Shown here one piece after another: positions 1,822-63,164 of a stretch of 64,000 bases of DNA. Each line of letters opens with the position of its first letter. Position 1 is the stretch's first letter. The stretch is from positions 64,019 to 128,018 of the forward strand of contig CAYNAR010000001.1 of NCBI GenBank assembly GCA_964395625.1, in the 5' to 3' direction. This DNA is from an uncultured Gammaproteobacteria bacterium (GTDB taxonomy: Bacteria > Patescibacteriota > Patescibacteriia > Patescibacteriales > WJLG01). The notes beneath the pieces were generated by a model, which did no database searches, was not told the origin of the DNA, and saw only the letters and a list, made by a program, of their open reading frames with translations. The translations under genes and the position numbers were made by a program.

Positions 1822-4244
<2,423 letters not shown>

Positions 4245-27471: not shown

Positions 27472-27475
27472 ATTT
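27449..27475 (+). terminator. Intrinsic terminator after tRNA-Ser
   Basis: AACGGC-CTAAA-GCCGTT plus a T-rich run. Confidence 0.75.
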
Positions 27476-27638
27476 TAAGTGATGCAAGGAAAGTGGGATT
27501 CGAACTGGTTGGAAACGAAACAAGACTCGTGAGGGAACGAGCGAGTCGTAGTTGAGTGATCGTCAAGTATTCGGGGAATACTTGACGCCAACCCTGGACA
27601 AGAGAGCGAGGAGCTATTTGGCGACGAGCGAACGCGAA

Positions 27639-27692
27639 AATCCCACCTCCACCGCATTAAAATAAAAATAACGGCCTAAAGCCGTTGTTTTT
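27639..27692 (+). repeat. Direct repeat copy 2 (orphan tRNA-Ser 3' end plus terminator)
   Basis: AATCCCACCTCCACCGCATTAAAATAAAAATAACGGCCTAAAGCCGTTGTTTTT repeated 221 bp downstream. Confidence 0.9.
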
Positions 27693-27784
27693 TATTTTTT
27701 AGCTTTAAATGGTATAATTTAAATAGTATTCGCCGTGTTTTAAAAGTTTGCTTTTTTTATCATTTTGTGTTATAATTTGTTATT

Positions 27785-38340: not shown

Positions 38341-39288
38341 ATGAACGATTCAGAATTATACCTTTCCGTGGCCGTCCCGGTCTATAATGAAGAAGGGGCG
38401 ATAGCCGACTTGCACGCCAAGATCTTGGCCGCCTGCCAGAAGATAAATAAACCCTTCGAAATCATTTTCGTCAACGACGGATCCAAAGACAAGACTTTGG
38501 AGATTTTGAAGACCCTTAAGCCGGTCAAGGTCGTAAACTTCCGCAAGAATTTCGGCCAGACCGCCGCTATGGATGCCGGTATAAAGGCCGCTAAGGGTTT
38601 CTACGTCGCCACTTTGGACGGCGATGGTCAGAACGACCCGGCCGACATCGAGCGCTTGATCGCTAAATTGGAGGCCGAGGATTTGGATGTGGTTTCCGGA
38701 TGGCGTAAGAACCGTAAAGATAAATTCTTCAAGAAATTCTTTTCGCGCTGCGCCGCTTTTGTTAGAAAAATACTCATCAATGACGGTATTCATGACAGCG
38801 GTTGCTCTCTTAAAGTATATAAAAGGGAATGCTTTAAGCATATCGACCTTTTCGGCGAGATGCATCGTTTCATTCCGGCGCTCTTAAAGGTCAAAGGTTT
38901 TAGAATAGGCGAATTGGAAGTTGCTCATCATCCGCGCACCACGGGAAAGACGAAGTATAATTTCAAGAGGGGATTCAAGGGTATCCTGGATATGTGCTCG
39001 ATCTGGTTCTGGAAGAAGTATAACAGCCGTCCTTTGCACTTCTTCGGGGCCATCGGCTTGGGCTTGGTCTCCTTATCGATTCTCTCCGCCATAATCGCCG
39101 CCTTCAAGAAGATTTTCCAACACCAAGATTTGTCCGACACCTCTTTGACCGTGCTTTCGATGTTCGGCTTCATGATCGGCATCCAGTTCTTCGTCTTCGG
39201 CCTTCTTGCCGACATCCTCTCCAAGACCTACTTCAACGTCACACGCGACAAGGTCTATGATATAAAAGAAACGATAGAGAACAAATAG
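38341..39288 (+). CDS. GT2 polyprenyl-phosphate glycosyltransferase (DPM1/ArnC-like) with C-terminal TMs
   Basis: LSVAVPVYNEE; IIFVNDGSKDKT; LDGDGQNDPADI; two C-terminal TM helices. Confidence 0.78.
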   Translation: MNDSELYLSVAVPVYNEEGAIADLHAKILAACQKINKPFEIIFVNDGSKDKTLEILKTLKPVKVVNFRKNFGQTAAMDAGIKAAKGFYVATLDGDGQNDPADIERLIAKLEAEDLDVVSGWRKNRKDKFFKKFFSRCAAFVRKILINDGIHDSGCSLKVYKRECFKHIDLFGEMHRFIPALLKVKGFRIGELEVAHHPRTTGKTKYNFKRGFKGILDMCSIWFWKKYNSRPLHFFGAIGLGLVSLSILSAIIAAFKKIFQHQDLSDTSLTVLSMFGFMIGIQFFVFGLLADILSKTYFNVTRDKVYDIKETIENK

Positions 39289-39358: not shown

Positions 39359-39988
39359 ATGCTCACTGATTATGCTCTTGCCATTTTTTCATGTAAAAGG
39401 GAGATGATTCGTGCGATTGGACATCTCGAGCGCGCTGGTTTCAAAGAATTATTTCTTGATGGCTCAGGTCTTTACGACAGAGAATGTCTGCGTCGTAAAG
39501 ATTTTGAGGCAGAGAAGGGGAACGATTTTGATTTTGCTATTTGGGGAATAGGGTCATCCTTTCCTCAAATGGAAATACTCAACCATCGCTTTAAGATGAT
39601 GGATGTTATAGAGATGCTTAAGAAGGTCGAAAGCAAAGTTGAAATTGAGAGAGGCTTCGATCTGATGAGTGTTCCAGGCCTTGCAGAAATAGATTTTAAG
39701 GCGTGGATCGGTGATCGTATAATAAGCCAGCAGTACAAGCACGAAGACGAAGTGATAACCGGAATAGAAATGAGTCCCGATGGTCAGATTGGTTATACAT
39801 ATTCGTACTGGATATTTGAAGATTGCGATTCTCACATGGATTGCGAAGGCCATTGGCGTGATTATTATGGTAATTATATAAAGGATTTCGCATTCCTTGC
39901 CAATAGCCCCAGACCCAGAAAGACTCCTAAGACTATGGATATAAAAAGAGATGCATCAGGAAAGATAGTCTCTTTTCTTATCAGCTAA
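39359..39988 (+). CDS. Hypothetical protein
   Basis: RBS AGGAGG; terminator hairpin fused to an R1 right-end fragment. Confidence 0.55.
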   Translation: MLTDYALAIFSCKREMIRAIGHLERAGFKELFLDGSGLYDRECLRRKDFEAEKGNDFDFAIWGIGSSFPQMEILNHRFKMMDVIEMLKKVESKVEIERGFDLMSVPGLAEIDFKAWIGDRIISQQYKHEDEVITGIEMSPDGQIGYTYSYWIFEDCDSHMDCEGHWRDYYGNYIKDFAFLANSPRPRKTPKTMDIKRDASGKIVSFLIS

Positions 39989-40036
39989 CTAGGTATGAAC
40001 AAAAGGGCGTTTTAAAACGTCCTTTTTTATTTTTTT

Positions 40037-40067
40037 AAAGTCTTAATTCCAGACCTGCCCCCAAAAT
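40037..40067 (+). repeat. R1 repeat, right-end fragment (copy 0)
   Basis: AAAGTCTTAATTCCAGACCTGCCCCCAAAAT matches the right terminus of the full copy 47847-47877. Confidence 0.8.
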
Positions 40068-40690: not shown

Positions 40691-40997
40691 AGGGAGGTCT
40701 GGAATAATGCATCGCATCTGTGGTATAATAGTTAAGTATTGAGTTGTGAGTTTTAAAAATATTTTTCAGTATTCTGCCCGCCGGTAAAGGATTTGGCCGA
40801 CCCTCCTTGGCCTTATTCGATGCCAGTGGACAGAATTCTGCCAAAAACAGGCCTTACAAGGGCTTGTTTTTGGTTTATGGAAGGATTTGGGTGGGTGAGC
40901 GGTATTGTGTAGCGGAAGTGAAGCAAGGCGAGGTGTGTTGGTAAATACTGCCAGTTTTTTGTTTAAAACCTTATAATTAAAGACCTGACCCAAAAAC
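40691..40997 (+). repeat. R1 repeat copy 1 (left TIR-like end, part A, T1 hairpin, right end; promoter region replaced)
   Basis: GGAGGTCTGGAATAAT left end; part A 40751-40870 about 85-90% identical to copies 5 and 8; ends AGACCTGACCCAAAAAC. Confidence 0.85.
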
Positions 40998-42054: not shown

Positions 42055-42290
42055 AAAAATAAGCCTCGCGATGGCTTGTTTTTGGTTTACACAATGGTTT
42101 GGGTTGTGTGGCGGTGATTTATATTATCCTGAAAAATAGGCGGTTTTTAGGGCATTTCAGGGCCTTAAAAACGCTTGCAAATTCTATTTTTTCGTGTTAT
42201 ATTATGGCTTAATCCAAAAATGGCAAATATTGCCAGTTTTTTCGTTTAAAACGCTAAAAGCAAAGACCCGCTCTTAAAGTGATCCAAAAA
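42055..42290 (+). repeat. R1 repeat copy 2 (starts at T1 hairpin; promoter and T2 present)
   Basis: AAGCCTCGCGATGGCTTGTTTTTGGTTT...TATTATCCTGAAAAATAGGCGG...CTTGCAAATTCTATTTTTTCGTGTTATATTATGGCTT...TGGCAAATATTGCCAGTTTTTT. Confidence 0.85.
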
Positions 42291-42826: not shown

Positions 42827-42986
42827 ATGGTCCATTTGCGAGGCCTCAAGAATATTTTCTTGAGGCTTTTAATTTAAACTTATAATTTGTATTGTCCTAT
42901 AAAATTATTTGAAAACGCTTACATGGATATGGCGATTCCGAAGATGAAGACCTTTTTGATGATGATTTTTAAGTTTATAATAAAAT

Positions 42987-43256
42987 ATGAATTTCAATAA
43001 ATTAGAAATTGGTAAGCCAATATTAAGTATCACGGGCAGAGCTAGTTATGGAATAATAGGAATAGGGAAGGATGATTCTTGTGTTTATTACAAAAGAATA
43101 AATACTGGATCAGAAGAAAAAATAGAGAAAACAAAACTGGAAGAAATCAAGAGAATGAAAGAGGCTGGGAAAAAGATCAATACAAAAACCATTAAAGAAA
43201 TCGTTCCAAGAAAGCAGTCGCCGGCATTGGCAATACTAAAGAAGCTTGAAGAGTAA
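42987..43256 (+). CDS. Small basic hypothetical protein
   Basis: 89-aa ORF; its last about 8 codons recur as a remnant at 45016-45048. Confidence 0.45.
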   Translation: MNFNKLEIGKPILSITGRASYGIIGIGKDDSCVYYKRINTGSEEKIEKTKLEEIKRMKEAGKKINTKTIKEIVPRKQSPALAILKKLEE

Positions 43257-43285
43257 TACAACAAAGCTTAACCCAAGGCCCGATA

Positions 43286-43418
43286 TTGTTTTAAAGTCTT
43301 TTTTATGCTAAGGTTAGATTTAATAATAAAACAGACAAGTTTGATCACATTCCGGAGGGACTAATGAGATGGACGATAAAGATTTGAACAAGGCAAGATG
43401 TGGCCTTGTTTTTGTTTT
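43286..43418 (+). promoter_or_regulatory. F2 module copy a: promoter TTGTTT-17-TGcTAAGGT, RBS plus 7-codon mini-ORF (43364-43387), terminator (43388-43418)
   Basis: GGAGGG-4nt-ATGAGATGGACGATAAAGATTTGA abuts stem ACAAGGC/GCCTTGT plus T run; 3' ~60 nt identical in copy b. Confidence 0.6.
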
Positions 43419-43436
43419 CTCGTTAATCTTTATAAA

Positions 43437-44752: not shown

Positions 44753-44776
44753 CAAAAAGATATAAATTGATAGTAT
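44749..44776 (+). promoter_or_regulatory. Promoter TTGACA-16-TGaTAGTAT overlapping the DUF3800 stop codon
   Basis: Consensus -35; extended -10. Confidence 0.45.
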
Positions 44777-44782
44777 TATAAT

Positions 44783-44876
44783 ATACATAAATCCTATAGG
44801 GAGCTCTAAGGAGTAAGCGGCGTTTCCGCCGTCGAACTATAGGTAGTTGTGAAAACACCCTGAGGGGTGTTTTTTA
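44783..44876 (+). ncRNA. Candidate small RNA (about 90 nt) downstream of DUF3800
   Basis: Closing helix CCTATAG(44793-99)/CTATAGG(44837-43), inner hairpin CGGCG-TTTC-CGCCG, terminator ACACCC-TGAG-GGGTGT plus T5. Confidence 0.45.
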
Positions 44877-45012
44877 GTATAACCTAAGGCTTGTTTTTGG
44901 TTCCTAGAAGGATTTAGGCAGGGAGGGGGTATTTATATTATCCTGAAAAATAGGCGGTTTTCAGGCTATTTTGGGGCCTGCAAAACGCTTGTAGTTTCTA
45001 TTTTTCATCTAT
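44841..45012 (+). repeat. R1 repeat copy 4 (terminator module, T1 half, part B; promoter degenerate)
   Basis: AAGGCTTGTTTTTGGTTCCTAGAAGGATTT...TATTATCCTGAAAAATAGGCGGTTTTCAGGC...CTTGTAGTTTCTATTTTTCA. Confidence 0.8.
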
Positions 45013-45015: not shown

Positions 45016-45077
45016 AAAAGGGCAATATTGAAGAAGCTTGAAGAGTAATACAACAAAGCTTAACCCAAGGCCCGATA
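45016..45077 (+). repeat. Duplicate of the 3' end and downstream flank of CDS 42987-43256
   Basis: GGCAATATTGAAGAAGCTTGAAGAGTAATACAACAAAGCTTAACCCAAGGCCCGATA vs 43227-43285, nearly identical. Confidence 0.8.
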
Positions 45078-45106
45078 TTGTTTTAAGGTCGTTTTTATGC
45101 TAAGGT
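45078..45106 (+). promoter_or_regulatory. F2 promoter copy c (TTGTTT-17-TGcTAAGGT), no mini-ORF or terminator
   Basis: Same promoter as 43286 and 46064; reads directly into CDS 45144. Confidence 0.55.
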
Positions 45107-45143
45107 TGGATTCAATACAACACCGAATTAAAATAAATAATTG

Positions 45144-46073
45144 ATGAAAAAAATTGAAAGAATAAAAGACATTCTAAGTAGAATTGATAATGATAGTTTG
45201 CTTAGAATCAAGCAGGAAATTAAGGATAAGGAATTACTATTGATATCTTTGGCGGAAAAAGGGGAGATAAGCGACAAAACTTGTGAAGACTCCGTCTTTG
45301 ATTATTTAAAATTGAGTAAAAATCCGCCCCGGCCAAAAAATTTAAACGAGCTCATGGTTCAATTTATCGGTAGTGCGTTCAGTTACAATAGAATAAGAAT
45401 ACAAATGCGCAAGATTCATAGAGAAAGATTTGGCAATCCCGATTTTCCGATAAAAAGCGAGCACAAAAAGATATTGTCATATATTTTTAACGATCAAAGA
45501 TTGAATGACGATTTTTTTTGGCACCCAGAAAGGTTGGGAATTCTAATGGATGAGATTGAGAGTAGGGGGGACTATAATAACCCGATGATTATAACACCGT
45601 ATTGGCTTGGGCGTATAATGTCTACCTTGCTGACAGCGCCGAAAAGAATAATGGAGATTACAGGTGGCGACATATCTGCTTTCTATAAAAAAATCGACGA
45701 AATGTGCAATGACGAATGCCAAGGCGACATCTTTGAAAAATCCAAAAGATTATGGAATTTTGCCAAAGAGATTAGTGTTGGAGTAAAGAATGTAGGCCCC
45801 AATCTGGTTTGTGATTTTTTGAAAGAATCCGGTTTTACAGCCTACGCCAAAATGGATGTCCACCTAATGAGGAGTATGGGGAATTTCTTACATAATTTTA
45901 AAGATGAGAAACTTGATGATTTTGAATCCTTTGTTACCGCGCAGTGGTTTGCCGATAAGATAGGAATGACGCCGTATAGATTTGATAAGATTTTGTTTGT
46001 CTGGGGTATTCAATATCCACAAAAAAATAAAAAAGCGAAGTGCAAGAAAGAAACCACCCAATGTTGTTTTTAA
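45144..46073 (+). CDS. Hypothetical protein with possible HhH-GPD (endonuclease III-like glycosylase) C-terminal motif
   Basis: GVKNVGPNLVCDFLKESGFTAYAKMDVHLMRSMG resembles GVGxKTAxxV...xxVDxHxxR. Confidence 0.35.
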   Translation: MKKIERIKDILSRIDNDSLLRIKQEIKDKELLLISLAEKGEISDKTCEDSVFDYLKLSKNPPRPKNLNELMVQFIGSAFSYNRIRIQMRKIHRERFGNPDFPIKSEHKKILSYIFNDQRLNDDFFWHPERLGILMDEIESRGDYNNPMIITPYWLGRIMSTLLTAPKRIMEITGGDISAFYKKIDEMCNDECQGDIFEKSKRLWNFAKEISVGVKNVGPNLVCDFLKESGFTAYAKMDVHLMRSMGNFLHNFKDEKLDDFESFVTAQWFADKIGMTPYRFDKILFVWGIQYPQKNKKAKCKKETTQCCF

Positions 46074-46198
46074 GCTGTTTTTGTGCTAAGGTTGGATTTA
46101 ACAAAGAAATAGACAAGTTTAATCACATTCTGAGGGGATTAATGAGATGGACGATAAAGATTTGAACAAGGCAAGATGTGGCCTTGTTTTTGTTTTTT
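46064..46198 (+). promoter_or_regulatory. F2 module copy b: promoter, mini-ORF (46142-46165), terminator (46166-46198)
   Basis: -35 overlaps the stop of CDS 45144-46073; mini-ORF MRWTIKI identical to copy a. Confidence 0.6.
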
Positions 46199-46203
46199 AG
46201 TAT

Positions 46204-46380
46204 ATGATAAAAAAGATTTGCACGGATGAAGATAAATTGAGGTGTCCTAATTGTGGTGGTGAATTATATTTTGCTGCAGAGTTTAAGAAAGAAGATGTAA
46301 TATATTACGAATGTCGCAGTTGTGAGAGCGGAAAAAATCAGTCCAAGGTAAGAGTAGTTGGGGGCTTAGTTTGTTGGTGA
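46204..46380 (+). CDS. Small zinc-ribbon protein (58 aa; below ORF-track cutoff)
   Basis: MIKKICTDEDKLRCPNCGGELYFAAEFKKEDVIYYECRSCESGKNQSKVRVVGGLVCW; CxxC...CxxC. Confidence 0.55.
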   Translation: MIKKICTDEDKLRCPNCGGELYFAAEFKKEDVIYYECRSCESGKNQSKVRVVGGLVCW

Positions 46381-46402: not shown

Positions 46403-47269
46403 ATGAAAATTATAGGCATATTAAAAAAAGGTGAAGAAGAAAAGAAAAATATTCTTTACAATCTTTTAAACTCTTACTATTTTGGCAAAATAGAAAGGTG
46501 GAAGAGGAAGGGCGTTTCAGAAGATGATGCTTTTGATAAATATTTAAACTTCTTTATTGCATTGAATATTGCTTATAATCTTTGGGCAAATATAGATAAT
46601 CCAAATTTTAATCCTATTGGAAGCGATGCATCTGCGTTTAAAAAAATAGGCTCCGATTTGTTGAATGATTTAGGTGATGGTGGCAATAGTTACTTGCAGG
46701 GGTTAATTAATATTCTTGATAGTAATCATCTTTTTTTAAATGTTGGCACACAAAATAAAAAAGAAGATATTAAAAATGTTTTCGCAAGAGCTCATGCTAG
46801 TAATGATGTTAAAAAAATAAAAGAAATTGCTTGGGAATCATTTTATTCTGCTAGATGCAATCTAGTACATGGTGTGAAAGGTTATGAAATTTTTCAGGCC
46901 GTGCTTCTTGGATTTATGAACGATGAGCTCTTGAAGCATATAGAAGAAATTATTAAACAGTTAAAAATTTTAAGTGATTTATTAACTATTAATCTGAAAA
47001 TTAAAAAAGATTGTGAGTTTGATAGTGTGGGCGGTGGTGGTAGGTATAAAATTATTAGCAATGACGATGTTGTTGTGAAAATAAAGAGATTGAATGCGGT
47101 TTACGCAGAAAGAGAGTATCCTGTTAAGATGAGTGAGCTTTTGGAAATATTAACAAATTTTTATGGAAAAAGAGGAGAGATAAATACAAGCACCATCGAT
47201 CTGTATGTTTCTGGAAGAGAGTCACTGGCTATGGCAATTTTAAAGCATTGTGAAATTGTAGAAAATTAA
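46403..47269 (+). CDS. Hypothetical protein with RX4H (HEPN-like) motif
   Basis: ESFYSARCNLVHGVKG contains R-x4-H followed by G; N-terminal all-helical pattern. Confidence 0.35.
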   Translation: MKIIGILKKGEEEKKNILYNLLNSYYFGKIERWKRKGVSEDDAFDKYLNFFIALNIAYNLWANIDNPNFNPIGSDASAFKKIGSDLLNDLGDGGNSYLQGLINILDSNHLFLNVGTQNKKEDIKNVFARAHASNDVKKIKEIAWESFYSARCNLVHGVKGYEIFQAVLLGFMNDELLKHIEEIIKQLKILSDLLTINLKIKKDCEFDSVGGGGRYKIISNDDVVVKIKRLNAVYAEREYPVKMSELLEILTNFYGKRGEINTSTIDLYVSGRESLAMAILKHCEIVEN

Positions 47270-47306
47270 TAGTAATTTTTAAAATAATTAGTTTAAAACT
47301 ATATTT

Positions 47307-47534
47307 ATGCAAGAGATAAAAATTGAGGACAAACAAAAATATCTTAATGAACACTATCTTTTTGCGCCTGTTCCTAAGATTGAAGAGAAAATGGTATGTG
47401 CTCATTGTGATTCCGTTTTTACAGTTGGTGATTATAGAGTGTATAAAGATGAAACTGGTTTCGAGGCTATTTGTTGTCCTAATGCACCAGAATGCAAGGG
47501 AACAATTATAGATTGGGTGTCAAAAGAAGAATAA
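47307..47534 (+). CDS. Small zinc-ribbon-like protein
   Basis: CAHC...CCPNAPEC Cys pairs; 75 aa. Confidence 0.5.
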   Translation: MQEIKIEDKQKYLNEHYLFAPVPKIEEKMVCAHCDSVFTVGDYRVYKDETGFEAICCPNAPECKGTIIDWVSKEE

Positions 47535-47650
47535 ATTTTGGGTCAAGTCTTGAATCGTGAATTTTAAAAATATTTTCCAGCACTCTGTCTGCTGGCAAAA
47601 GATCTGGCCAACCCTCCTTGACCTATTTAATGCCAGTGGACAGAATTCTG

Positions 47651-47683
47651 CCCAAAACAAGCCCCTCAAAGGCTTGTTTTGGG
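47651..47683 (+). terminator. R1 internal hairpin T1 (13-bp perfect stem)
   Basis: CCCAAAACAAGCC-CCTCAAA-GGCTTGTTTTGGG. Confidence 0.6.
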
Positions 47684-47771
47684 TTTTGGAGGGGTGAAAC
47701 AGGCTGTCATTGTGTATTTTGTCGCTCAGAAAAAGAGGGGGTTACGAGACTGTTTTAAGCCCCAAAAACAC

Positions 47772-47800
47772 TTGCAAATTATATTTTTTCGTGGTATATT
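47772..47800 (+). promoter_or_regulatory. R1 internal promoter TTGCAA-17-TGgTATATT
   Basis: Conserved in 6 R1 copies (42.2, 47.8, 48.96, 50.7, 52.0 and 54.4 kb). Confidence 0.6.
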
Positions 47801-47812
47801 ATGGCTTAAATT

Positions 47813-47839
47813 AAAAATGGCAAATATTGCCAGTTTTTT
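47813..47839. terminator. R1 internal hairpin T2 (bidirectional terminator)
   Basis: AAAAA-TGGCAA-ATA-TTGCCA-G-TTTTTT. Confidence 0.65.
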
Positions 47840-47923
47840 GTTTAAAAAAGTCTTAATTCCAGACCTGACCCCAAAATTAATTTAAACTTGTAATTTGCAT
47901 ATAGATAATATATGTATAATAGC

Positions 47924-47951
47924 TTGACATACGGATTATTAATGGTATAAT
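47924..47951 (+). promoter_or_regulatory. Promoter TTGACA-16-TGgTATAAT
   Basis: Consensus hexamers plus extended -10 upstream of the NYN leader. Confidence 0.65.
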
Positions 47952-47957
47952 TAATTT

Positions 47958-48019
47958 ATACATCTTCTGTCGCTTCGGTGGCAGAATGCGGGGTTGCAGA
48001 AATGCAACCCTTGCTTTTT
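47958..48019 (+). ncRNA. Structured leader/short RNA ending in a terminator 12 nt before the NYN start codon
   Basis: Hairpin TTCTGTCGC-TTCG-GTGGCAGAA (47965-86); GGGTTGCA-GAAA-TGCAACCC plus TTGCTTTTT (47991-48019). Confidence 0.5.
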
Positions 48020-48030
48020 AAATACGATAT

Positions 48031-48723
48031 ATGCGAGCATGCGTTTATGTTGACGGCTTCAATCTTTTTTACGGAAGCTTGAAAGGGGGTAAATATAAAT
48101 GGCTTGATATCGATAAACTTGTAAAGAATTATTTTCCTTCGTACTCAATAGAAAAAATAAAATATTTTTCCGCTCCGACTAAGGCGCGAAAAAACGATCT
48201 TAATAAACCTGTCCGGCAACAGATGTATTTTAGGGCATTAAGAACAAACCCGAACACAGAAATAATCCTCGGATCGTTTTTGGAAAATGAGGTTTGTTTT
48301 TTTGTTCCATCAAAAACTAAAAATGGCACACAGCAAAAAGCAAAAGTTTCTGTGTTAAAGAACGAAATGAGCTTGCCTTTGGTTGATCCGAATTATTTGA
48401 TAGTCAAAAAAACGGAGGAAAAAGGGTCAGACGTAAATTTAGGAGCTCATTTGGTTATGGATGCGTATGAAAAAAGATTTGACGTAGCTATTGTTGTTTC
48501 CAATGATTCAGATTTAGTTGAGCCAATTAGAATAGTTAACAATATGAACAATCTAAGAGTCAGGTTGTTAAATCCCTACCCTACAACACAAGAAAAGTTA
48601 AAGAAGGTCACGGCGAACACTGGAATAAAATACATAAGACAAAGCGTGCTACAAATTTCTCAATTCCCAGAGAACATGAAAGATATTGTTGGTTGTTTTC
48701 ATATACCGCAAAATTGGAAGTAA
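48031..48723 (+). CDS. NYN (LabA/DUF88-like) domain protein, putative RNase
   Basis: ACVYVDGFNLFYG; EKGSDVNLGAHLVMDA; DVAIVVSNDSDLVEPI. Confidence 0.75.
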   Translation: MRACVYVDGFNLFYGSLKGGKYKWLDIDKLVKNYFPSYSIEKIKYFSAPTKARKNDLNKPVRQQMYFRALRTNPNTEIILGSFLENEVCFFVPSKTKNGTQQKAKVSVLKNEMSLPLVDPNYLIVKKTEEKGSDVNLGAHLVMDAYEKRFDVAIVVSNDSDLVEPIRIVNNMNNLRVRLLNPYPTTQEKLKKVTANTGIKYIRQSVLQISQFPENMKDIVGCFHIPQNWK

Positions 48724-48753
48724 AGAGTAATATGAAATAATGGGTCTTTGTAG

Positions 48754-48990
48754 AAACAAGCCTCTTGGGGTTTGTTTTTGGTTTCTAGAGGGACACAAAG
48801 CATGTCACCCCGAGCGTAGCCGAGGGATCATAATAATTCTTACTCCTTATTATCCTGAAAAATAGGCGGTCTTAAGGCTGTTTTGGGGCTCTAGTTGTTA
48901 TTGCGAGGCCGGTATTTCCGGCCGTGGCAATCCAGTATTAAAATCACCTAAAAACACTTGCAAATTATATTTTTTCGTGGTATATTATGA
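48754..48990 (+). repeat. R1 repeat copy 6 (T1, part B with two small insertions, promoter; T2 and right end absent)
   Basis: AAACAAGCCTCTTGGGGTTTGTTTTTGGTTTCTAGAGGG ... TATTATCCTGAAAAATAGGCGG ... CTTGCAAATTATATTTTTTCGTGGTATATT. Confidence 0.85.
48958..48986 (+). promoter_or_regulatory. R1 promoter copy driving the methyltransferase-rSAM-peptide operon
   Basis: TTGCAA-17-TGgTATATT; no T2 hairpin before ATG 49051. Confidence 0.6.
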
Positions 48991-49050
48991 CTTCCTCAAA
49001 ATCGTTATAAAATAAAATTTATTTTTTGATAGTATGTTAATGCGAGACTT

Positions 49051-49521
49051 ATGAATAATTTTTTAGAAGAATTTATAAAGGAAAAATATGGATCAAACGT
49101 TGGCTCGGCTTTGGATTTTGGCGCCGGTAAAGGTGTTGATGTTCGCGAGCTACAAAAAATAGGCTGGGATGTCAAAGGCCTTGATCTTCCCAGTAATGAT
49201 CTTAACTTTCCTTATAAGACCGATAAACAAGTTGATTTTATTTATTCCATAGCAGTAATCCAGTTTATCAAAGATAAGGAAGTTTTTGTTAGAAATATTA
49301 TCGACAATCTTAAGGATGATGGTTGGTTTTTTATTTTAACCTTTTCTAAGAATGATGTTTTCTTTGGTGAGAAAGGCGGTATGTCAAAAGAAGATTTAGA
49401 AGGTCTTTTTAAAGAATTTAAAAATGTAAAAACCGAAAACAAAGATTTTTTCGATAATGACATAGGGCATAATCATTGGCATAAATTACTTATAGTAACA
49501 GGACAAAAAAGGGGGGAGTGA
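49051..49521 (+). CDS. Class I SAM-dependent methyltransferase
   Basis: ALDFGAGKGVDVRELQKIGWDVKGLDL; DFIYSIAVIQFI; LKDDGWFFILTF. Confidence 0.7.
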   Translation: MNNFLEEFIKEKYGSNVGSALDFGAGKGVDVRELQKIGWDVKGLDLPSNDLNFPYKTDKQVDFIYSIAVIQFIKDKEVFVRNIIDNLKDDGWFFILTFSKNDVFFGEKGGMSKEDLEGLFKEFKNVKTENKDFFDNDIGHNHWHKLLIVTGQKRGE

Positions 49522-50270
49522 TGAGTAGATTTTATTTGCAAATGCACATTACAAATAAGTGTAATAATCGATGCTCGCATTGTTATCAGTCTGACTATGG
49601 CGGAGAAGATATGAGTGTCGATTCGGCAAAGTTGATTTTTAAAGAGCTTTCTTCGATTTGTAAAAAAGTTTCAGTAAGGTCGGAAGTTTCAATTACTGGA
49701 GGTAGTCCCGTATTGGCGGATGGTTTTATTGAAATAGTCGAGACAGCCAGGGAGCTTTGCGATGTCGTAAGGATTCTTGGCAATCCAGAAGGATTGAGTG
49801 ATGAAATAGTTTTGTTTTTAAAAAAGGTCGGAGTGGATGGTTTTCAACTGTCCCTTGATGGCTCAAGACAGACCCACGATTCTTTAAGAAGTAGCGGTAG
49901 TTTTGACAGGACTATAAGTGCTATGAAGAAGCTATCGTCGGAAGGAATTTTAGTTTTTGTTAATTCTACTTTATCTGATAATAATCGCCACGAAATAAGT
50001 CTTATTAATGAAATCGCAGAAGCTAATGGCGCCAGTCATGTTTCTTTTGAAGAGTATGTTCCGTATGGTTTGGATTGTTCCGGAAAATGTAATTGTAGTT
50101 TGGGCTCCGCCACAATGGCCATTTTGCCGGATCTTACAATTATGGCTTGTCGAAGGACTCCGTCTAGTATTCTTGGAAAATGGACCAAGGAGCGTGGATT
50201 ATTTTATCATTTAGCCAAAAATGAAAAAATGATAGAGTATAGGAGAAGGAAGGCGTTGAAAAATGCATAA
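49518..50270 (+). CDS. Radical SAM enzyme with short C-terminal Cys-rich (twitch/partial SPASM-like) region
   Basis: Overlaps upstream stop (GTGATG); CNNRCSHC = CX3CX2C; ITGGSPVL; LSLDG; C-terminal CSGKCNCSLGSATMAILPDLTIMAC. Confidence 0.8.
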   Translation: MMSRFYLQMHITNKCNNRCSHCYQSDYGGEDMSVDSAKLIFKELSSICKKVSVRSEVSITGGSPVLADGFIEIVETARELCDVVRILGNPEGLSDEIVLFLKKVGVDGFQLSLDGSRQTHDSLRSSGSFDRTISAMKKLSSEGILVFVNSTLSDNNRHEISLINEIAEANGASHVSFEEYVPYGLDCSGKCNCSLGSATMAILPDLTIMACRRTPSSILGKWTKERGLFYHLAKNEKMIEYRRRKALKNA

Positions 50271-50306
50271 TATAATCAACCTTAAAAAAGAAAGGAGTAA
50301 GTGCCC

Positions 50307-50414
50307 ATGTCACAAGAGCTTGAACTTCAAAACTTGAAGCTGGCTGGCGTTTTTGATGAAGCTTGTACGCTTTGTATCAATGTCGGCACCGGTGGCGGAT
50401 CGGATAATGATTAA
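50307..50414 (+). CDS. Candidate RiPP precursor peptide (35 aa), not in ORF track
   Basis: RBS AGGAG; MSQELELQNLKLAGVFDEACTLCINVGTGGGSDND; 36 nt after the rSAM stop; terminator follows. Confidence 0.6.
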   Translation: MSQELELQNLKLAGVFDEACTLCINVGTGGGSDND

Positions 50415-50530: not shown

Positions 50531-50801
50531 TTCTGATTCCAAAATGCCAAAAATAAGCCTCCTGTGAGCTGCACCCCGTTTAGTAGACACGAATAAAATA
50601 CTAGCGGTTCTCTAAAAGGGTTTAGAAGGGGTCTGGCAATTTGTATTATCCTGAAAAGTAGGCGGTTTTCAGGCCATTTTGTGGCCTTGAAAGCGCTTGC
50701 AAATTCTATTTTTTCGTGGTATATTATGGCTTAAATTAAAAATGGCAAATATTGCCAGTTTTTTGTTTAAAACCTTATAGCTAAAGACCTGGCCCCAAAA
50801 T
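50531..50801 (+). repeat. R1 repeat copy 7 (degenerate left part; part B, promoter, T2, right end)
   Basis: TATTATCCTGAAAAGTAGGCGGTTTTCAGGCC...CTTGCAAATTCTATTTTTTCGTGGTATATTATGGCTTAAATTAAAAATGGCAAATATTGCCAG...AGACCTGGCCCCAAAAT. Confidence 0.85.
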
Positions 50802-51667: not shown

Positions 51668-51792
51668 AATAATTTTAAAATAGCATAAAAATATTATTAA
51701 GGCAAGTTTGCAGAAGTGACCATAAAAACAGATCTTTAACGATATTTACTTGGAAATATTTGTTTTTTTATGTTACGCTAAAGCTTAATATG

Positions 51793-52026
51793 AAAATATT
51801 TTCCAGTATTCTGTCCGCCGGCAAAGAGCTGGCCGACCCTCCTCGGCCTGCTTGATGCCAGTGGACAGAATTCTGCCAAAAACAGGCCTCGCAAGGGCTT
51901 GTTTTTGGTTTCTGGAAGGATTTAATCGTGGTTGTGGTGTTTGTATTATCCTGAAAAATAGGCGGTTTTAAGGCTATTTTGGGGTCTTGAAAGCACTTGC
52001 AATTTCTATTTTTTCGTGGTATAAAA
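51793..52026 (+). repeat. R1 repeat copy 8 (part A, T1, part B, promoter; T2 and right end absent)
   Basis: AAAATATTTTCCAGTATTCTGTCCGCCGGCAAAGAGCTGGCCGACCCTCCTCGGCC...CTTGCAATTTCTATTTTTTCGTGGTATAAA. Confidence 0.85.
51997..52025 (+). promoter_or_regulatory. R1 promoter copy (TTGCAA-17-TGgTATAAA) driving the rSAM-peptide-HExxH operon
   Basis: No T2 hairpin; RBS AGGAGG and GTG 52077 lie 50 nt downstream. Confidence 0.6.
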
Positions 52027-52076
52027 AATAGAAATGTTTTTTGATAGAGCACTTTAAATTTTTACAGGAGGTTTTT

Positions 52077-53384
52077 GTGATTTACAGAAGTTTAACAGCT
52101 CCAATATCTTGCCAAATTGAATTGACAACGGCTTGTCAGCTTAAGTGTGTTCATTGTTATAATCACTGGAGATGCTTAAGTTGCGACAACGATTTGTTTA
52201 TGACCGAAAAAGAGGCGGAGTTTGTCGCTAATCAGATTATTGATGCAAAGGTATTTCAGGTGACTCTAACCGGTGGAGAACCTTTGCTTAACCGCAAGGC
52301 ATTATTTCGTATTCTTGATTTACTGAAAGATGAAAGAATTGAAATCGGGTTAAATTCTAACTTGATTAGTCTGAGTGAGAAGGATGTTGATATTCTGCAT
52401 GCTGGAAATGTTAAATCCGTTTTAACTTCGTTTGCTTCATCTAGCGAAAGTGTGAATGATAGTATAATGAAGCTTGACGGGGCGCAAAAAAGAATAATCA
52501 AAGGGATCGAGTTGGTTGTGGAAACTGGTTTTAGTGTTGGTTGTAGCATGGTTGTCACCAAAATGAATCTTGATGATGTTGTTGAGACCGGATTATTCCT
52601 TCAGAGTCTTGGTGTGACTAATTTTTACGCCACAAAGGGTTCCCCACCGCTAAACTCCAAAGGTTTTGATAACTTTATGCTTTCCGGCGATGAATTGTTG
52701 AAGGTGATGGATGATTTGAGCTTATTAAAGGAAAGACACGGCCTTGAAGTTGGGATTTTGGAATGTTACCCGGTTTGTTTTTATTGTTTCCAGGAAAAAT
52801 ACCCTTTTACTGTCGGTAAGCGTTGTAGTGCTGGGTCGACGGCTTGTGCTATTGGTTCTGCTGGTGACGTTAGGGCTTGTACTCATTCAGACGTTATTTA
52901 CGGTAATATCTTTAAAGGAGGTTTAAAGGAAGCGTGGGGTGAAATGAGGGACTGGAGAGATGGGGCTAGGATTTCCTCGACTTGTAGAACGTGTGTTTAT
53001 TTTCCTGAATGTAGCGGTGGATGTAGAGTTGATGCTGAATTTTGCGGTGGTGCTAAGGATTCCATGGATCCTTATGCTGATAAAAATCAGATAGCAAGTG
53101 TCAGCTTGCTTAAAAAAGATGTATTGGTTGAATTTTCCGAAGAACAAAGATTTTTTGTAAAAAAAATAAAATTTAGAAAAGAGATTGACTCTGTTTTATG
53201 CGCAAGCCTTGATCGCGTGCATAGTCCGGTTTTGTTGACGGTGGATATGTTTGATTTTCTTGTTGAAATGAGTGAAAAGACCTTTACATTGTCGGAAATG
53301 TCAAGTATAATCAACTTGGATATTAATTCTTGTAAGGAATTGTGTTCATGTCTTTTTAAGGATGGATTGCTAAGTGTTCTTTAA
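52077..53384 (+). CDS. Radical SAM/SPASM-domain peptide maturase with C-terminal PqqD/RRE-like extension
   Basis: GTG 52077 with RBS AGGAGG (track TTG 52041 unlikely); CQLKCVHC; TGGEPLL; CSAGSTACAIGSAGDVRAC; CRTCVYFPECSGGC...C (CX2CX5CX3C). Confidence 0.85.
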   Translation: MIYRSLTAPISCQIELTTACQLKCVHCYNHWRCLSCDNDLFMTEKEAEFVANQIIDAKVFQVTLTGGEPLLNRKALFRILDLLKDERIEIGLNSNLISLSEKDVDILHAGNVKSVLTSFASSSESVNDSIMKLDGAQKRIIKGIELVVETGFSVGCSMVVTKMNLDDVVETGLFLQSLGVTNFYATKGSPPLNSKGFDNFMLSGDELLKVMDDLSLLKERHGLEVGILECYPVCFYCFQEKYPFTVGKRCSAGSTACAIGSAGDVRACTHSDVIYGNIFKGGLKEAWGEMRDWRDGARISSTCRTCVYFPECSGGCRVDAEFCGGAKDSMDPYADKNQIASVSLLKKDVLVEFSEEQRFFVKKIKFRKEIDSVLCASLDRVHSPVLLTVDMFDFLVEMSEKTFTLSEMSSIINLDINSCKELCSCLFKDGLLSVL

Positions 53385-53403
53385 AAAGAAAGGAGGTAAT
53401 TGC

Positions 53404-53544
53404 ATGAAAGAGAAGAAGAGCTTCGGATACGTTTCTTTGTTGCTCGATACATCTGTCGAGAATAAAAAAGACGATTCTAAAGCAGCTGTTTCGATGTCTT
53501 GTTACTGCAATTGTAATAGTTGCAATTGTTATGTGACAAAGTAA
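53404..53544 (+). CDS. Candidate Cys-rich RiPP precursor peptide (46 aa), not in ORF track
   Basis: RBS GGAGG; MKEKKSFGYVSLLLDTSVENKKDDSKAAVSMSCYCNCNSCNCYVTK; starts 19 nt after the rSAM stop. Confidence 0.7.
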   Translation: MKEKKSFGYVSLLLDTSVENKKDDSKAAVSMSCYCNCNSCNCYVTK

Positions 53545-53588: not shown

Positions 53589-54299
53589 ATGCTAAAAAAG
53601 ATAGGTTTAAAATTTGTTTCAAATAAAAATAACGATGTGGAGGAATTTTTTCGTCTCTGGCATGGGCACGAAAATCTTAGAGTTGGCTTAATGGATTTTG
53701 TAAATAACAATTCGAACAATATCATACACCCCGATATTGCCCCGTCGAAAGATATTTTGGCTTTGGCTGTGAAAAGTAGATACGAGATGGATGAGAAAAA
53801 GATCGTTAAAACGTTATTTTTTGCGGAGAACAAATGGTGCGAAATAGAACCGTTATTTTATGATTTAGTCGGCAAGATATTTAAGAAGGATTTTTCCTTT
53901 GATAAAATAATAAAGGTCTATGTTTCAGTGCTTCCGTTTTTTGTAAGAAATTTGGATGAAGGGCGTGTCTCTATTCCGTATAACACAAGCAATGAAAACG
54001 AGCCAGTTTTTGTTTTAGCTCATGAGCTCTTGCATGTTATTTTCTATTCTTACATTCATGATAATTATGAAGAATTAAGAGAAAGTCTTTCTAGTAAGAA
54101 GGTTTGGGATTTTTCTGAAGCTATAAACGTCGTTATACAGGGGCAGGTTGAGTGGGTGAATATTTTTAAAATAGAGCCCAGCTTTTATCCCGAGCACGAA
54201 GCGTTGTACTTAGCACTGAATAAAAAGTGGGAAAAAGATAAAGACATAGATTCTTTGATAAGGGATTTTTTGGTTAATGTGGCAGAACGGCAAAATTAA
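53589..54299 (+). CDS. Putative HExxH zinc metallopeptidase
   Basis: VFVLAHELLHVIFYSY; same operon as rSAM and precursor. Confidence 0.5.
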   Translation: MLKKIGLKFVSNKNNDVEEFFRLWHGHENLRVGLMDFVNNNSNNIIHPDIAPSKDILALAVKSRYEMDEKKIVKTLFFAENKWCEIEPLFYDLVGKIFKKDFSFDKIIKVYVSVLPFFVRNLDEGRVSIPYNTSNENEPVFVLAHELLHVIFYSYIHDNYEELRESLSSKKVWDFSEAINVVIQGQVEWVNIFKIEPSFYPEHEALYLALNKKWEKDKDIDSLIRDFLVNVAERQN

Positions 54300-54518
54300 A
54301 AACAAGCCTTTTGGGGCTTGTTTTTGGTTTCTGGAAGGATTTAATCGTGGTTGCGGTGTTTGTTTGTCCTGAAAAATAGGTGGTTTTAAGGCCATTTTGG
54401 GGTCTTGAAAACACTTGCAATTTCTATTTTTTTGTGTTATATTATGGCTTAATCTAAAAATGGCAAATATTGCCAGTTTTTTGTTTAAAAAGTCTTAATC
54501 ACAAATCCGACCTCAAAA
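54297..54518 (+). repeat. R1 repeat copy 9 (T1, part B, promoter, T2, degenerate right end)
   Basis: AAACAAGCCTTTTGGGGCTTGTTTTTGGTTTCTGGAAGGATTTAATCGTGG...CTTGCAATTTCTATTTTTTTGTGTTATATTATGGCTT...TGGCAAATATTGCCAG. Confidence 0.85.
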
Positions 54519-54528: not shown

Positions 54529-56403
54529 ATGCAACTAATTAAAAAAATTTCGTTAAAAGGTTTGTTTTGTTTTGTAATATTGCCTATTTTTTTAAGTTTA
54601 TTTTCTTTACCAAAAACAGAAACAAGGGAAATAAATATAAATAAAGAAGATTTTCCCTACATACTTAATTATGATTGGGGGAACAACAAGGATGAACATT
54701 CGCTTAAGTATGTGTTTTTAAAGATGTTGGATTCAACATTAAAATTGGAATTTTATAACATATGCTTAAACAATGATTCGTATATAGAGAAAAATGGTAA
54801 AATAATTTTAAGAGATGATTTAGTGCCGCCAATGGGAAATCTAAGCGTTGACGTATATCCTTTAGCTGAAAATTTCAAAATATATAATTACTTTCAATTT
54901 TTAAAATATAGAAACAAGGACTTTATTGATTACAGCGGAAAAGGATTAGAATATAGTAAGACCTTGATTTCGGAGCCCGGGAAAACAAGATGTTTGAAGC
55001 AATTAACAGATGAAGATGGTTTTTTGTTTACTGGCATAAAAATAAAGACTCTTGGCGCCACCTGGATTGGTATTAAGGATGATTCTGGGGGACATTCGGT
55101 GACCGTAGACACTGATACGTATGTGGAATTTTTTGGTAATTCCAAAATATTTATAAAAACAAACTGGTTGGCGTTATTAATTAAATTTTTTATTTTATTT
55201 TTTCTTTTTGAAGGAATAATTCTCATGTTATCGTCTGTGGTAGAAAAAGTAATTAAAAAACAGATAGCACGATTTAAACAAATAGAAAATCCAATGAAAA
55301 AAATCCTAATTCTTAACTACGAATTCCCGCCCTTGGGCGGCGGTGCAGCCAACGCCACATACTACCTATTAAAGGAATTTTCCAAATTCCCGGATTTAGA
55401 ATTGGATTTAGTAACTTCTTCTGTCGATAAGTTTAGAGTCGAGCAATTCAGTGACAATATTCGCATTCATTACTTAGATATAAACAAAAAAGGCAATCTT
55501 CACTACCAAAGCATTAAAGATCTTTTAACTTATTCTTGGAAAGCCTATAAATACTGTAAAGAATTAAAGAAAAAAGAAAAGTTTGATTTGATTCACGCTT
55601 TTTTTGGCATACCTTGTGGTTACATAGCGATGAAATTGAAAATTCCATACATTATAAGCTTAAGAGGTACGGATGTTCCATTTCATAAAAAAAGATTTTA
55701 TTGGCTGGATAAGCTGGTGTTTAAAAATTTAAGCAAGAAAGTTTGGAAAAATGCAAAAGCTGTTATTTCCAATTCTAAGGGGCTTAAAGAACAAGCGCAA
55801 AAAACAAATGAAAAACAAATAATAGATGTTATTTGCAACGGCGTTGACACTGATTTTTTTTGCCCATTATTGAATAAGCAAGTTGGCAACAAAATAAAAT
55901 TAATTTCCGTCGGCAGATTAGCCCCGGAAAAAGGTTATGATTATCTAATTAAAGCATTTGGTGGGCTTAAAGATTTTGAATTAACACTGATCGGCTCCGG
56001 AAAAGCAGAAGAAGATTTAAAAACCCTAGCAAATGAATATAAAGTTAAGGTTAATTTTCTTGGTCGGCAAGAAAAAGAAGTTGTTAAAAAAGAATTTCAA
56101 AATTCAGATATATACATTTTGTCATCACTAAAAGAGGGGATGTCTAACTCCATGATGGAGGGCATGGCCTGTGGCTTGCCGGTAATAGCAACAAACGTTA
56201 GTGGTAGCGAAGAATTAATAAAAGGCAATGGATTTATTGTTGAAAAAGGTGATTCCAAGGCTATTTCTGAAAAGCTTAAGGTTTTTCAAGATGATAAAAA
56301 TTTGATTTTAACAATGGGTAAAATTTCCAGGGATTTAGCGGAAAAAATGAGCTGGAAAAATGTTGCCGATGAATATTTAAATATCTATAATTTAAAACCA
56401 TGA
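54529..56403 (+). CDS. Fusion ORF: N-terminal unknown TM domain plus C-terminal GT4 glycosyltransferase (internal ATG 55294)
   Basis: MKKILILNYEFPPLGGGAANATYYLL begins at residue 256; SLKEGMSNSMMEGMACGLPVIATNVSG. Confidence 0.7.
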   Translation: MQLIKKISLKGLFCFVILPIFLSLFSLPKTETREININKEDFPYILNYDWGNNKDEHSLKYVFLKMLDSTLKLEFYNICLNNDSYIEKNGKIILRDDLVPPMGNLSVDVYPLAENFKIYNYFQFLKYRNKDFIDYSGKGLEYSKTLISEPGKTRCLKQLTDEDGFLFTGIKIKTLGATWIGIKDDSGGHSVTVDTDTYVEFFGNSKIFIKTNWLALLIKFFILFFLFEGIILMLSSVVEKVIKKQIARFKQIENPMKKILILNYEFPPLGGGAANATYYLLKEFSKFPDLELDLVTSSVDKFRVEQFSDNIRIHYLDINKKGNLHYQSIKDLLTYSWKAYKYCKELKKKEKFDLIHAFFGIPCGYIAMKLKIPYIISLRGTDVPFHKKRFYWLDKLVFKNLSKKVWKNAKAVISNSKGLKEQAQKTNEKQIIDVICNGVDTDFFCPLLNKQVGNKIKLISVGRLAPEKGYDYLIKAFGGLKDFELTLIGSGKAEEDLKTLANEYKVKVNFLGRQEKEVVKKEFQNSDIYILSSLKEGMSNSMMEGMACGLPVIATNVSGSEELIKGNGFIVEKGDSKAISEKLKVFQDDKNLILTMGKISRDLAEKMSWKNVADEYLNIYNLKP

Positions 56404-62483: not shown

Positions 62484-62590
62484 ATTGAATCAATCAATTG
62501 ATTGGCAGATTATTGAAGAAAGGCTGAAAAATCCATTGTTTTACTAAATCCCCACCCCATTCCCGCAAGGGAGTGCGGTGGGTTTTTTTT
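62484..62590 (+). ncRNA. Structured leader/short RNA ending in a strong terminator 10 nt before the NYN start
   Basis: Palindrome CAATCAATTGATTG; 14-bp stem CCCACCCCATTCCC-GCAA-GGGAGTGCGGTGGG plus T8 (62551-62590). Confidence 0.5.
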
Positions 62591-62600
62591 GGGGAATTTT

Positions 62601-63164
62601 ATGTCTAAAAAAACAAAAAGAGTGGCTATTTTTATTGATGGAAGTAATTTGTATTATAAATTAAAAGATTTGAAGGTTAAAAATAAAACCAAATTTGATT
62701 ATTTTGGTTTTTGTGGCTTATTGGCTGTTGATAGAGAAATAGTTTTTTGTAAGTACTATGTTGGAGAGGTTAGAGCAAAGAAGGGTGATGAAAAATCTCG
62801 TATAATGTTGTCTATGCAACAAAAGCTATTTAGTCATCTTGTTAAACAAGGAATTGTTGTAGAAAGAGGGTATTTAATGGAAAATGATGGCAAGTTTCAT
62901 GAAAAAGGTGTTGATGTGAAAATAGCGACGGATATAATAATAGGCGCTTATGAAAATATTTATGATGTGGCGATTATAATTTCCTCTGACACGGATTTGA
63001 TCCCTGCCATTAAACAAGCACGAAAGTTAAATAAAACTATTGAGCACATCGGATTTTCTCATGCCCCAACATTTGGCCTGCAAAAACACTCTGATTTTAC
63101 TAGGTTGTTTATTTATAATGACTTGAAAGAGTTCATAGAAGAAGACGATATTGAAGTAAAATAA
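62601..63164 (+). CDS. NYN (LabA/DUF88-like) domain protein, second copy
   Basis: VAIFIDGSNLYYKL; EKGVDVKIATDIIIGA; DVAIIISSDTDLIPAIK. Confidence 0.75.
   Translation: MSKKTKRVAIFIDGSNLYYKLKDLKVKNKTKFDYFGFCGLLAVDREIVFCKYYVGEVRAKKGDEKSRIMLSMQQKLFSHLVKQGIVVERGYLMENDGKFHEKGVDVKIATDIIIGAYENIYDVAIIISSDTDLIPAIKQARKLNKTIEHIGFSHAPTFGLQKHSDFTRLFIYNDLKEFIEEDDIEVK

Follow-up and report, generated by a model that had tools for sequence, protein, structure and literature searches.

BOX elements of Streptococcus pneumoniae and the BIME/REP repeats of enterobacteria affect transcription or termination of neighboring genes and are dispersed in about 100 or more copies per chromosome. Correia elements of Neisseria (CREE/NEMIS) run to hundreds of copies, almost all of which have the two 26-bp terminal inverted repeats (TIRs) and a TA duplication, and CALINs are clusters of attC sites lacking an integrase. 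Patescibacteria (Candidate Phyla Radiation) have tiny genomes, in which very few mobile elements or regulatory RNAs have been described. Here we analyze a 343-bp segment (positions 47535-47877) of a 64-kb stretch of DNA, which we call the window. We hold, with moderate confidence, that this segment is one copy of R1, a lineage-specific modular junction element of a hypervariable low-GC cassette island.

R1 resembles BOX and BIME/REP, in a comparison drawn from established knowledge and not from sequence comparison, in being a short, hairpin-rich, non-coding intergenic repeat whose modules keep a fixed order but occur in variable subsets. It differs from them in lying in one island and one orientation and in carrying a strong promoter, a covarying small RNA (sRNA) and a precise right joint. 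These same features, the fixed orientation within a single island, the covarying sRNA with its strong promoter, and a precise one-sided joint without a recognizable recombinase in the window and related loci, are what is new with respect to known mosaic repeats and cassette arrays. The sequence and coordinates in an initial annotation of this DNA were as described, and its module order (part A, terminator T1, part B, promoter, terminator T2) is correct. The segment divides as follows.

47535-47572, no strand assigned: left arm, with an inverted copy of the right-end motif (core 47537-47550) and then an A/T-rich leader; it abuts the stop codon of gene 47307-47534.
47573-47650, plus strand: part A, a ~75-nt three-segment hairpin RNA with apical loop CCCUCC (covariance-model match, 115 bits).
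47651-47690, plus strand: T1, an intrinsic terminator with arms at 47651-63 and 47671-83 (13/13 paired) and a U-rich tail.
47691-47766, plus strand: part B', by alignment a divergent part B without the CCTGAAAA/TTTTCAGG hairpin of other copies.
47772-47800, plus strand: predicted near-consensus sigma-70-type promoter, TTGCAA-17-TATATT, with an extended -10 TG.
47807-47840, plus strand: short leader and T2, whose hairpin (47818-32) is a perfect palindrome, TGGCAAATATTGCCA, between an A-run and a T-run.
47841-47877, plus strand: right end (R-end), consisting of GTTTAAAA, a variable stretch and AGACCTGACCCCAAAAT; its 3' edge at 47877 is the family-wide boundary.

In the mechanism that we propose, R1 would consist of two small transcription units in tandem; we infer both the expression as RNA and the use of the promoter. 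The first unit would be the part A hairpin RNA closed by T1. In the second, the extended -10 promoter would fire into a ~40-nt leader ending at the weak T2, and read-through would enter the next cassette. The element would end in the ~20-nt R-end, with a 3' edge that would serve as a recurrent recombination joint. Such an element would insulate neighboring cassettes, supply a portable promoter with an attenuator, carry a small regulatory RNA, and mark where cassettes are exchanged.

Part A has the properties of a structured RNA. The minimum free energy z-score of the focal copy is -7.1, and five copies range from -5.4 to -9.6. A covariance model trained on four copies picked up a further two, both in L021, a contig of a related metagenome-assembled genome (MAG). 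Aligned together, the six sequences have 91.6% of their cells in pairs, with compensatory changes in 18 of the 42 pairs, a result matched by none of 500 shuffles, while slid controls of the alignment pair at no more than 49%. T1, which forms helix 2 of this alignment and contributes 7 compensatory pairs, recurs at 40843, 42065, 48751, 51878, and 54297. The compensatory changes are accompanied by G-U pairs on the plus strand only, an invariant CCCUCC apical loop and, in relatives, a promoter and terminator belonging to part A itself: the copy in L005, from a second MAG, has a promoter to itself, and the copy at L021:11064-11189, which stands alone and outside the array, has both its own promoter (TTGAAT-17-TATTAT) and a different terminator. 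Part A is thus best read, on this comparative evidence, as a putative sRNA gene that can exist independently of R1. The standalone hairpin RNA at L021 11064-11240 (minus strand), which has a CCCCUCC loop, lies upstream of a GT2 gene in the same genome as L006.

The focal part A lies directly 3' of the stop codon of gene 47307-47534 and is therefore probably made as a 3' untranslated region RNA of operon 46403-47534, in which case T1 would end both part A and the upstream operon. Its CCCUCC loop may play an anti-Shine-Dalgarno-like role. As candidate targets of this loop, GGAGGG sites were rejected; they are ordinary Shine-Dalgarno-like sites without enrichment in the island. A search of Rfam 15 gave no family at gathering threshold within 47500-48040, and permissive E-values were tried as well; the best match was to SraG (22.7 bits; gathering score, 50). 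The DUF3800-I, drum, and skipping-rope motifs are compact structured RNAs with Rho-independent terminators that lie beside accessory genes in either orientation (PMC5737381). Part A is likewise compact, highly structured, and closed by a terminator, and a DUF3800-I-like RNA occurs in the same island; unlike these motifs, however, part A is not tied to one protein family, sits inside a repeated junction module, and has no Rfam match.

The promoter is the most conserved R1 module, with six copies in the window. In two of these it leads directly into a gene without T2 (from 48958 to gene 49051, and from 51997 to gene 52041) and can therefore act as a cassette promoter. T2, reached after a leader of ~40 nt, scores as terminator-like on both strands and is predicted to be a weak bidirectional terminator; terminator-like sites in the region 39.9-54.6 kb number 36 compared to 10.5 expected. 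Two other roles considered for this part of R1 were discarded: a small open reading frame (ORF; MANIASFLFK…) across T2 and the R-end has neither a conserved frame or length between copies nor a Shine-Dalgarno sequence, and T2 as a sigma-54 promoter would have a GG-to-GC spacing 2 nt too short. In L005, a "C module" of two hairpins and a G-rich GGGGAGGG segment (2060-2135, 2868-2920, and 4140-4200) is inserted between the R1 promoter and T2. Its second hairpin covaries between copies, and the module is absent from all window copies; the promoter-T2 interval, which thereby gains a two-hairpin RNA, would be a small transcription unit in its own right. Part B is where the focal copy departs from its siblings. 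The initial annotation had called this the only full-length copy, with part-B hairpins CCTGAAAA..TTTTCAGG and AGGCC..GGCCT, but in the alignment both hairpins are absent, so that the copy is not a canonical full-length one; its divergent part B is a variant shared with the metagenome contig L007, where its nearest relative lies at L007rc 2230-2360. The part-B hairpin was also dropped as a candidate conserved structure, its central pair being broken without compensation in several copies.

The right end of R1, …AGACCTGACCCCAAAAT, is nucleotide-precise and has the same orientation in all related copies, whatever the orientation of the cassette genes. At least 15 junctions in four genomes share the R-end motif, with core AGACCTGACCCCAA(A/T)A, and directly 3' of the core their sequences are unrelated. 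With up to 3 mismatches allowed, the window has 4 occurrences of the 16-mer core motif, compared to 0.18 expected, all of them within 40.0-47.9 kb. L005 and L007 are 99.6-100% identical apart from two rearrangements, and each of these has one breakpoint exactly at the 3' edge of GACCCTAATA: one is a 729-bp deletion into a DUF3800 gene, and the other brings in a different downstream neighbor, a 5'-truncated part A. By these comparisons the right end appears to behave like an active, mobile-DNA-like recombination joint. Because a nucleotide-precise joint is not expected from homologous recombination alone, its precision suggests a site-specific or end-specific activity. The R-end also resembles the 3' arm of part A together with the first bases before T1 (TTAATGCCAGTGGACAGAATTCTGCCCAAAA versus TTAATTCCAG--AC------CTGACCCCAAAA; z of about 4-5, 0/200 shuffles) and may be a shortened relative of that arm.

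About 20 related copies are present in the window and three related metagenome genomes. Within the window they occur only in a low-GC island at 40.0-54.5 kb between two glycosyltransferase genes, and no copy was found in the other 49 kb. As the initial annotation claimed, the other copies are mosaics, that is, contiguous subsets of modules with insertions and deletions. Besides the focal segment, the window contains the following.

40030-40067, plus strand: solo R-end, 3' of the gene 39359-39988 terminator; it opens the island's series of junctions.
40691-40996, plus strand: copy 1, with an extended -10 promoter, part A, T1, an unrelated spacer, a T2 variant, and R-end.
42056-42278, plus strand: R1 copy with T1, part B, promoter, T2, and a degenerate R-end.
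44886-45005, plus strand: R1 fragment, with the 3' half of T1, part B, and only the -35 and spacer of the promoter.
48751-49001, plus strand: R1 copy with T1, part B (two insertions), and promoter, then directly gene 49051.
50596-50801, plus strand: R1 copy with part B, promoter, T2, and R-end.
51790-52023, plus strand: R1 copy with part A, T1, part B, and promoter, then directly the radical-SAM gene 52041.
54297-54518, plus strand: R1 copy with T1, part B, promoter, T2, and a degenerate R-end; beyond this final junction comes the conserved GT4 gene 54529.

GC content drops from about 45% to 32-36% after about 32 kb, and between the GT2 gene 38341-39288 and the GT4 gene 54529-56403 lie small unrelated genes, including those for a GNAT protein, a DUF3800 protein, a methyltransferase, two radical-SAM enzymes, several proteins without a family, and an NYN protein that matches the PADLOC candidate defense family HEC-09 (E = 2.9e-36). 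Nearly every intergenic gap among them holds R1 pieces in the same orientation, even beside minus-strand genes. Housekeeping genes (ATP synthase, MraZ/MraW, penicillin-binding protein, Mur ligases, L21) and closest homologues are those of a Patescibacteria-like genome, and the island lies inside its glycan-biosynthesis locus.

Exact-pattern scans of genome contigs, metagenome contigs, and viral contigs placed the R1 family in three other sources only: a Patescibacteria MAG (L005/L012/L013), another MAG (L006/L021), and the metagenome contig L007. The genome-contig scan returned L005 and L006 alone and the metagenome-contig scan L007 alone; viral contigs gave no T2 match and one chance match inside a coding region (L011), and blastn against plasmids and phages found no match to the element. 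In the parts of their genomes examined, the relatives carry R1 only in the syntenic island, with different cassette content. L006 has different cassettes after GT2 and two in common with the window at 92.5% identity, and L005 has a DUF3800 cassette directly before GT4. In the more distant L008, GT2 and GT4 are separated by two sugar-nucleotide genes only, without R1. Likewise, R1 was not found at the loci of GT4 homologues (L008-L010) or of DUF3800 homologues from other Patescibacteria (L014-L019), where only the DUF3800-adjacent RNA is conserved. In genes and synteny, the record that contains L006/L021 (CAZJPG010000002.1) matches the Patescibacteria-like window, with 76-92% DNA identity; its title, "uncultured Gammaproteobacteria bacterium," is probably a wrong label. 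Among the contigs examined for their ends (L002-L004, L013, L020, L012, and L021), short-read contigs with island genes nearly all end inside R1, and both MAG contigs end within the array; R1 is a systematic assembly breaker in this lineage.

The ends of the focal segment are inverted repeats, as the initial annotation had noticed: its left end, ATTTTGGG-TCAAGTCTTGAAT, aligns with the reverse complement of the right end, ATTTTGGGGTCAGGTCTGGAAT, across a single indel. The local alignment scores 21, compared to a mean of 8.6 and a maximum of 15 in 500 shuffles (0/500 at 21 or above), and the repeat extends to about 39-42 nt at lower identity; the inverted ends are real and not a chance match. 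The reported TAA flanks are present at 47532-34 and 47878-80, but the inverted repeat outruns the ends of the segment by 5 nt (AATAAATTTTGGG versus CCCAAAATTAATT, 12/13; AATAA/ATTTT… versus …AAAAT/TAATT, with slashes at the ends), so that the TAA pair is ambiguous and inseparable from the extended repeat that contains it. A 3-nt match in DNA of 68% A+T is, moreover, weak evidence.

Across the window and related loci, the inverted motif occurs only at this left end, whereas all other R-end motifs (window, L005, L006, L007, and L021) are direct; the inverted left terminus is thus a feature of one in ~20 copies from four genomes. It is absent from copy 3, the part A copy of L005, and both part A copies of L021, one of which (L021:330-446) likewise lies 3' of a plus-strand gene. 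Copy 1 does contain the left-end-like GGAGGTCTGGAAT reported for it, but the local alignment is not significant (equaled by 89/500 and 127/500 shuffles), and the 11-nt match, AGGTCTGGAAT, lies at the -35 position of copy 1's own part A promoter; homology of the two copies covers focal 47542-47572 and copy 1 40731-40761. Neither an empty site (TAA joined directly to TAATTTAAAC) nor a flipped form was seen in L002-L004, which cross the left junction, or L020, which crosses the right one. All of these, Logan contigs from different runs whose assemblies report the majority form only, carry the element in the arrangement and orientation of the window. We conclude that the focal inverted repeat is one extra inverted R-end upstream of part A and not a family-defining transposon terminus. 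The left arm was also considered as an sRNA seed for R-end leaders and rejected, since it is not conserved in other part A copies. An A/T-rich 24-nt module, TTAATTTAAACTTRTAATTTGYAT, is present at window 47877-47900 and 42869-42892 (22/24 identical) and at about 6005 in L006. It follows the focal R-end at one site and a gene terminator at another, and the DNA just outside the element is therefore also modular.

Several other accounts of the segment can be weighed against these data. If it were an intact miniature inverted-repeat transposable element (MITE), it would span 47535-47877 with ~21-26-bp TIRs and a TAA duplication and would depend on an IS5- or IS630-like transposase acting in trans, while the remaining copies would be decayed or one-ended remnants. 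The significance of the inverted repeat, the pairing of its ends in a single-strand fold, the TAA on both sides, and a left end that exactly mirrors a right end stopping at the family-wide boundary are in line with this proposal, as are the adjacent-deletion-like polymorphisms that start at the right end. R1 further shares with Correia elements and MITEs its intergenic position, focal TIRs, possible TA/TAA duplication, and predicted internal promoter and terminator. In contrast to Correia elements, however, only one in ~20 copies of R1 is two-ended, no other copy has a duplication (other right ends are flanked by AAA, AAA, TTG, and AAA), and the copies are clustered in one island instead of dispersed. 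No transposase was found in the window ORFs and no match in plasmid, phage, or viral collections; the internal modules are predicted to function independently, part A even occurring alone outside the array; and the contigs across the left and right junctions offer no empty site. Aligning the copies, as the initial annotation had advised, gave a consistent, nucleotide-precise right terminus but neither a common left end nor a target duplication, and a MITE with TIRs in most copies, a constant duplication, and dispersed copies or empty sites did not emerge; we regard this account as improbable. An inverton, in which an invertase flips the 343-bp promoter segment between inverted R-ends and switches the downstream NYN cassette, deserves very little credence. 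The dimensions are indeed those of known invertons of the fimS and Bacteroides types (a few-hundred-bp promoter segment between inverted repeats of about 20-40 bp, here 343 bp and about 21-40 bp, with an outward-facing internal promoter), and the surface-polysaccharide and defense-type locus would suit such a switch. Nonetheless, the window and four independent metagenome contigs (L002-L004 and L020), five assemblies in all, show a single orientation, the window has no invertase gene, sibling R1 promoters lack an inverted partner, T2 lies between the R1 promoter and the NYN gene, and that gene has a perfect promoter of its own at 47924-47951. Recombination without dedicated machinery, in which R1 would be duplicated intergenic regulatory DNA shuffled by homologous and illegitimate events with the sharp right edge and the focal inverted repeat as by-products, is quite doubtful. 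It would explain why the breakpoints between window and L006 fall at various module borders, why copies are patchworks of contiguous subsets with insertions and deletions, and why no recombinase was found, but not an identical nucleotide-level edge in at least 15 junctions from four genomes and in both strain polymorphisms, nor the lack of any shared sequence past that edge, which random breakpoints would sometimes give.

A further candidate is a site-directed, integron-like system, in which a tyrosine recombinase or HUH enzyme encoded elsewhere would act on the R-end, and perhaps on the part A hairpin, as its recombination site, cassettes would be inserted or deleted at the R-end edge, and the R1 promoter would be a cassette promoter. 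We consider this unlikely, although several observations favor it: the single site orientation regardless of cassette-gene orientation, the precise 3' joint followed by unrelated sequences, the relation of the R-end to an arm of a conserved hairpin, and the variable cassette content at a fixed chromosomal locus. The two strain-level indels, with one breakpoint at the joint and the other non-homologous, look like adjacent deletions or secondary-site events, and 5'-truncated units follow the R-end directly in L006 and L007. Integron arrays and CALINs similarly combine a fixed locus, same-orientation sites with hairpin potential, and unrelated, mostly promoterless-looking small genes whose content, as in the R1 island, varies between relatives and strains; as in CALINs, there is no integrase nearby. 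Integron sites nonetheless differ from the R1 junction, which measures 200-340 bp, contains transcription signals and an sRNA, supplies a promoter per junction, and has no attC cores and no IntI. A rough pattern-plus-pairing scan for attC R'' (RYYYAAC) and R' (GTTRRRY) cores, requiring paired L''/L' boxes and a distance of 50-150 bp, gave 0 hits compared to 0.1 in shuffles (39.9-54.6 kb, both strands). The ends of IS200/IS605 elements and palindrome-associated transposable elements (PATEs), and those of IS91/ISCR, offer a second comparison, since they share with R1 a conserved end near a hairpin, a precise boundary without consistent TIRs or duplication, variable sequence past the end, and adjacent-deletion-like events from it. 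R1 differs from them in its hairpins, which carry transcribed-RNA signatures, and we found for it neither a Y1/Y2 HUH transposase or TnpB nor a conserved target tetranucleotide. Pfam scans of ORFs from the ~64-kb window returned no transposase, integrase, or HUH domain, and the gene tables of L012/L021 (~29 kb of related loci) list no transposase or integrase. Also unfavorable are the block shared by the window and L006, which ends away from R-end motifs, the expressed-RNA signals of part A (promoters, terminator, G-U pairs), which explain its conservation without a role at the DNA level, and the number of polymorphisms, which is only two. It is a speculative and rather unlikely extension that the R-end, a relic of the part A 3' arm, is the site of an undescribed Patescibacteria cassette-capture system without IntI or attC, of which the focal copy would be a minimal "empty" or excisable unit.

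The reading of R1 as a modular junction element has points against it as well. The enzyme implied by the precise right joint was found neither in the 64-kb window nor in ~29 kb of related loci. Confinement to the island was judged from the roughly one-half of its 128-kb contig that the window represents and, in the relatives, from contig ends, and dispersed copies may therefore exist elsewhere. The focal inverted repeat is statistically real, and calling it incidental is a judgment from one case. The covariation alignment of part A was fitted to its model and comprises only six sequences from three lineages, and there is no convincing promoter upstream of the focal part A. Finally, promoter, terminators, and sRNA are predictions drawn from sequence and covariation, and their transcription is likewise predicted.

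Several features of the neighborhood of R1 are worth recording. The NYN gene's promoter at window 47924-47951 (plus strand) is a perfect consensus, TTGACA-16-TATAAT with TG, and would drive a ~60-nt two-hairpin RNA (window 47924-48020) with a predicted terminator at 47990-48011 (fold z = -5.4). This RNA, which has no Rfam match, lies immediately 5' of the NYN (HEC-09) gene 48031 and is either a leader/attenuator or a separate sRNA. A second NYN-domain gene, 62589-63164 (Pfam E = 1.4e-19), lies ~14 kb downstream of the first and outside the R1 array. Just downstream of the DUF3800 gene, window 44761-44882 (plus strand) holds a structured RNA with a promoter (TTGACA-16-TAGTAT) and a terminator. 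Its score against Rfam DUF3800-I, 28 bits (E = 0.0095, search over 161 nt), falls short of the family's gathering score of 44.2. It is ~86% conserved beside DUF3800 homologues of distant Patescibacteria (L014-L019), above the conservation of the protein, and is probably DUF3800-I in a divergent form. A second intergenic repeat family, R2, has members 84-94% identical at 43229-43436, 45021-45117, and 46057-46214 and at L006 6069-6204. With its GGAGGG Shine-Dalgarno sequence, 7-codon mini-ORF (MRWTIKI), and terminator (43386-43411 and 46164-46189), R2 looks like a leader-peptide attenuator. The two radical-SAM cassettes, 49518-50414 and 52041-53544, the second with a SPASM domain, each include, after the radical-SAM gene, a short ORF for a Cys-containing peptide, equipped with a good Shine-Dalgarno sequence (about 50307-50414, MSQELELQNLKLAGVFDEACTLCINVGTGGGSDND; about 53404-53544, …SMSCYCNCNSCNCYVTK), resembling gene pairs for ribosomally synthesized and post-translationally modified peptides (RiPPs). 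Within 27347-27697, a second copy of the tRNA-Ser(TGA) 3' end and terminator lies 221 bp downstream of the first, making a 59-nt direct repeat (arms 27418-27476 and 27639-27697, 97% identical), which looks like the att scar of an element that was integrated and then lost.

The locus shows the compact build-up of a variable accessory and defense-type island in which each cassette brings a terminator, a small RNA, and a promoter. It also provides a new hairpin RNA that covaries and whose CCCUCC loop is anti-Shine-Dalgarno-like, and a repeat whose edge, with no known recombinase in its vicinity, acts like a precise recombination joint. Should this joint be enzyme-specific, it would represent a new gene-capture mechanism; otherwise, R1 would still be useful for marking hypervariable islands and would account for broken assemblies of these genomes.

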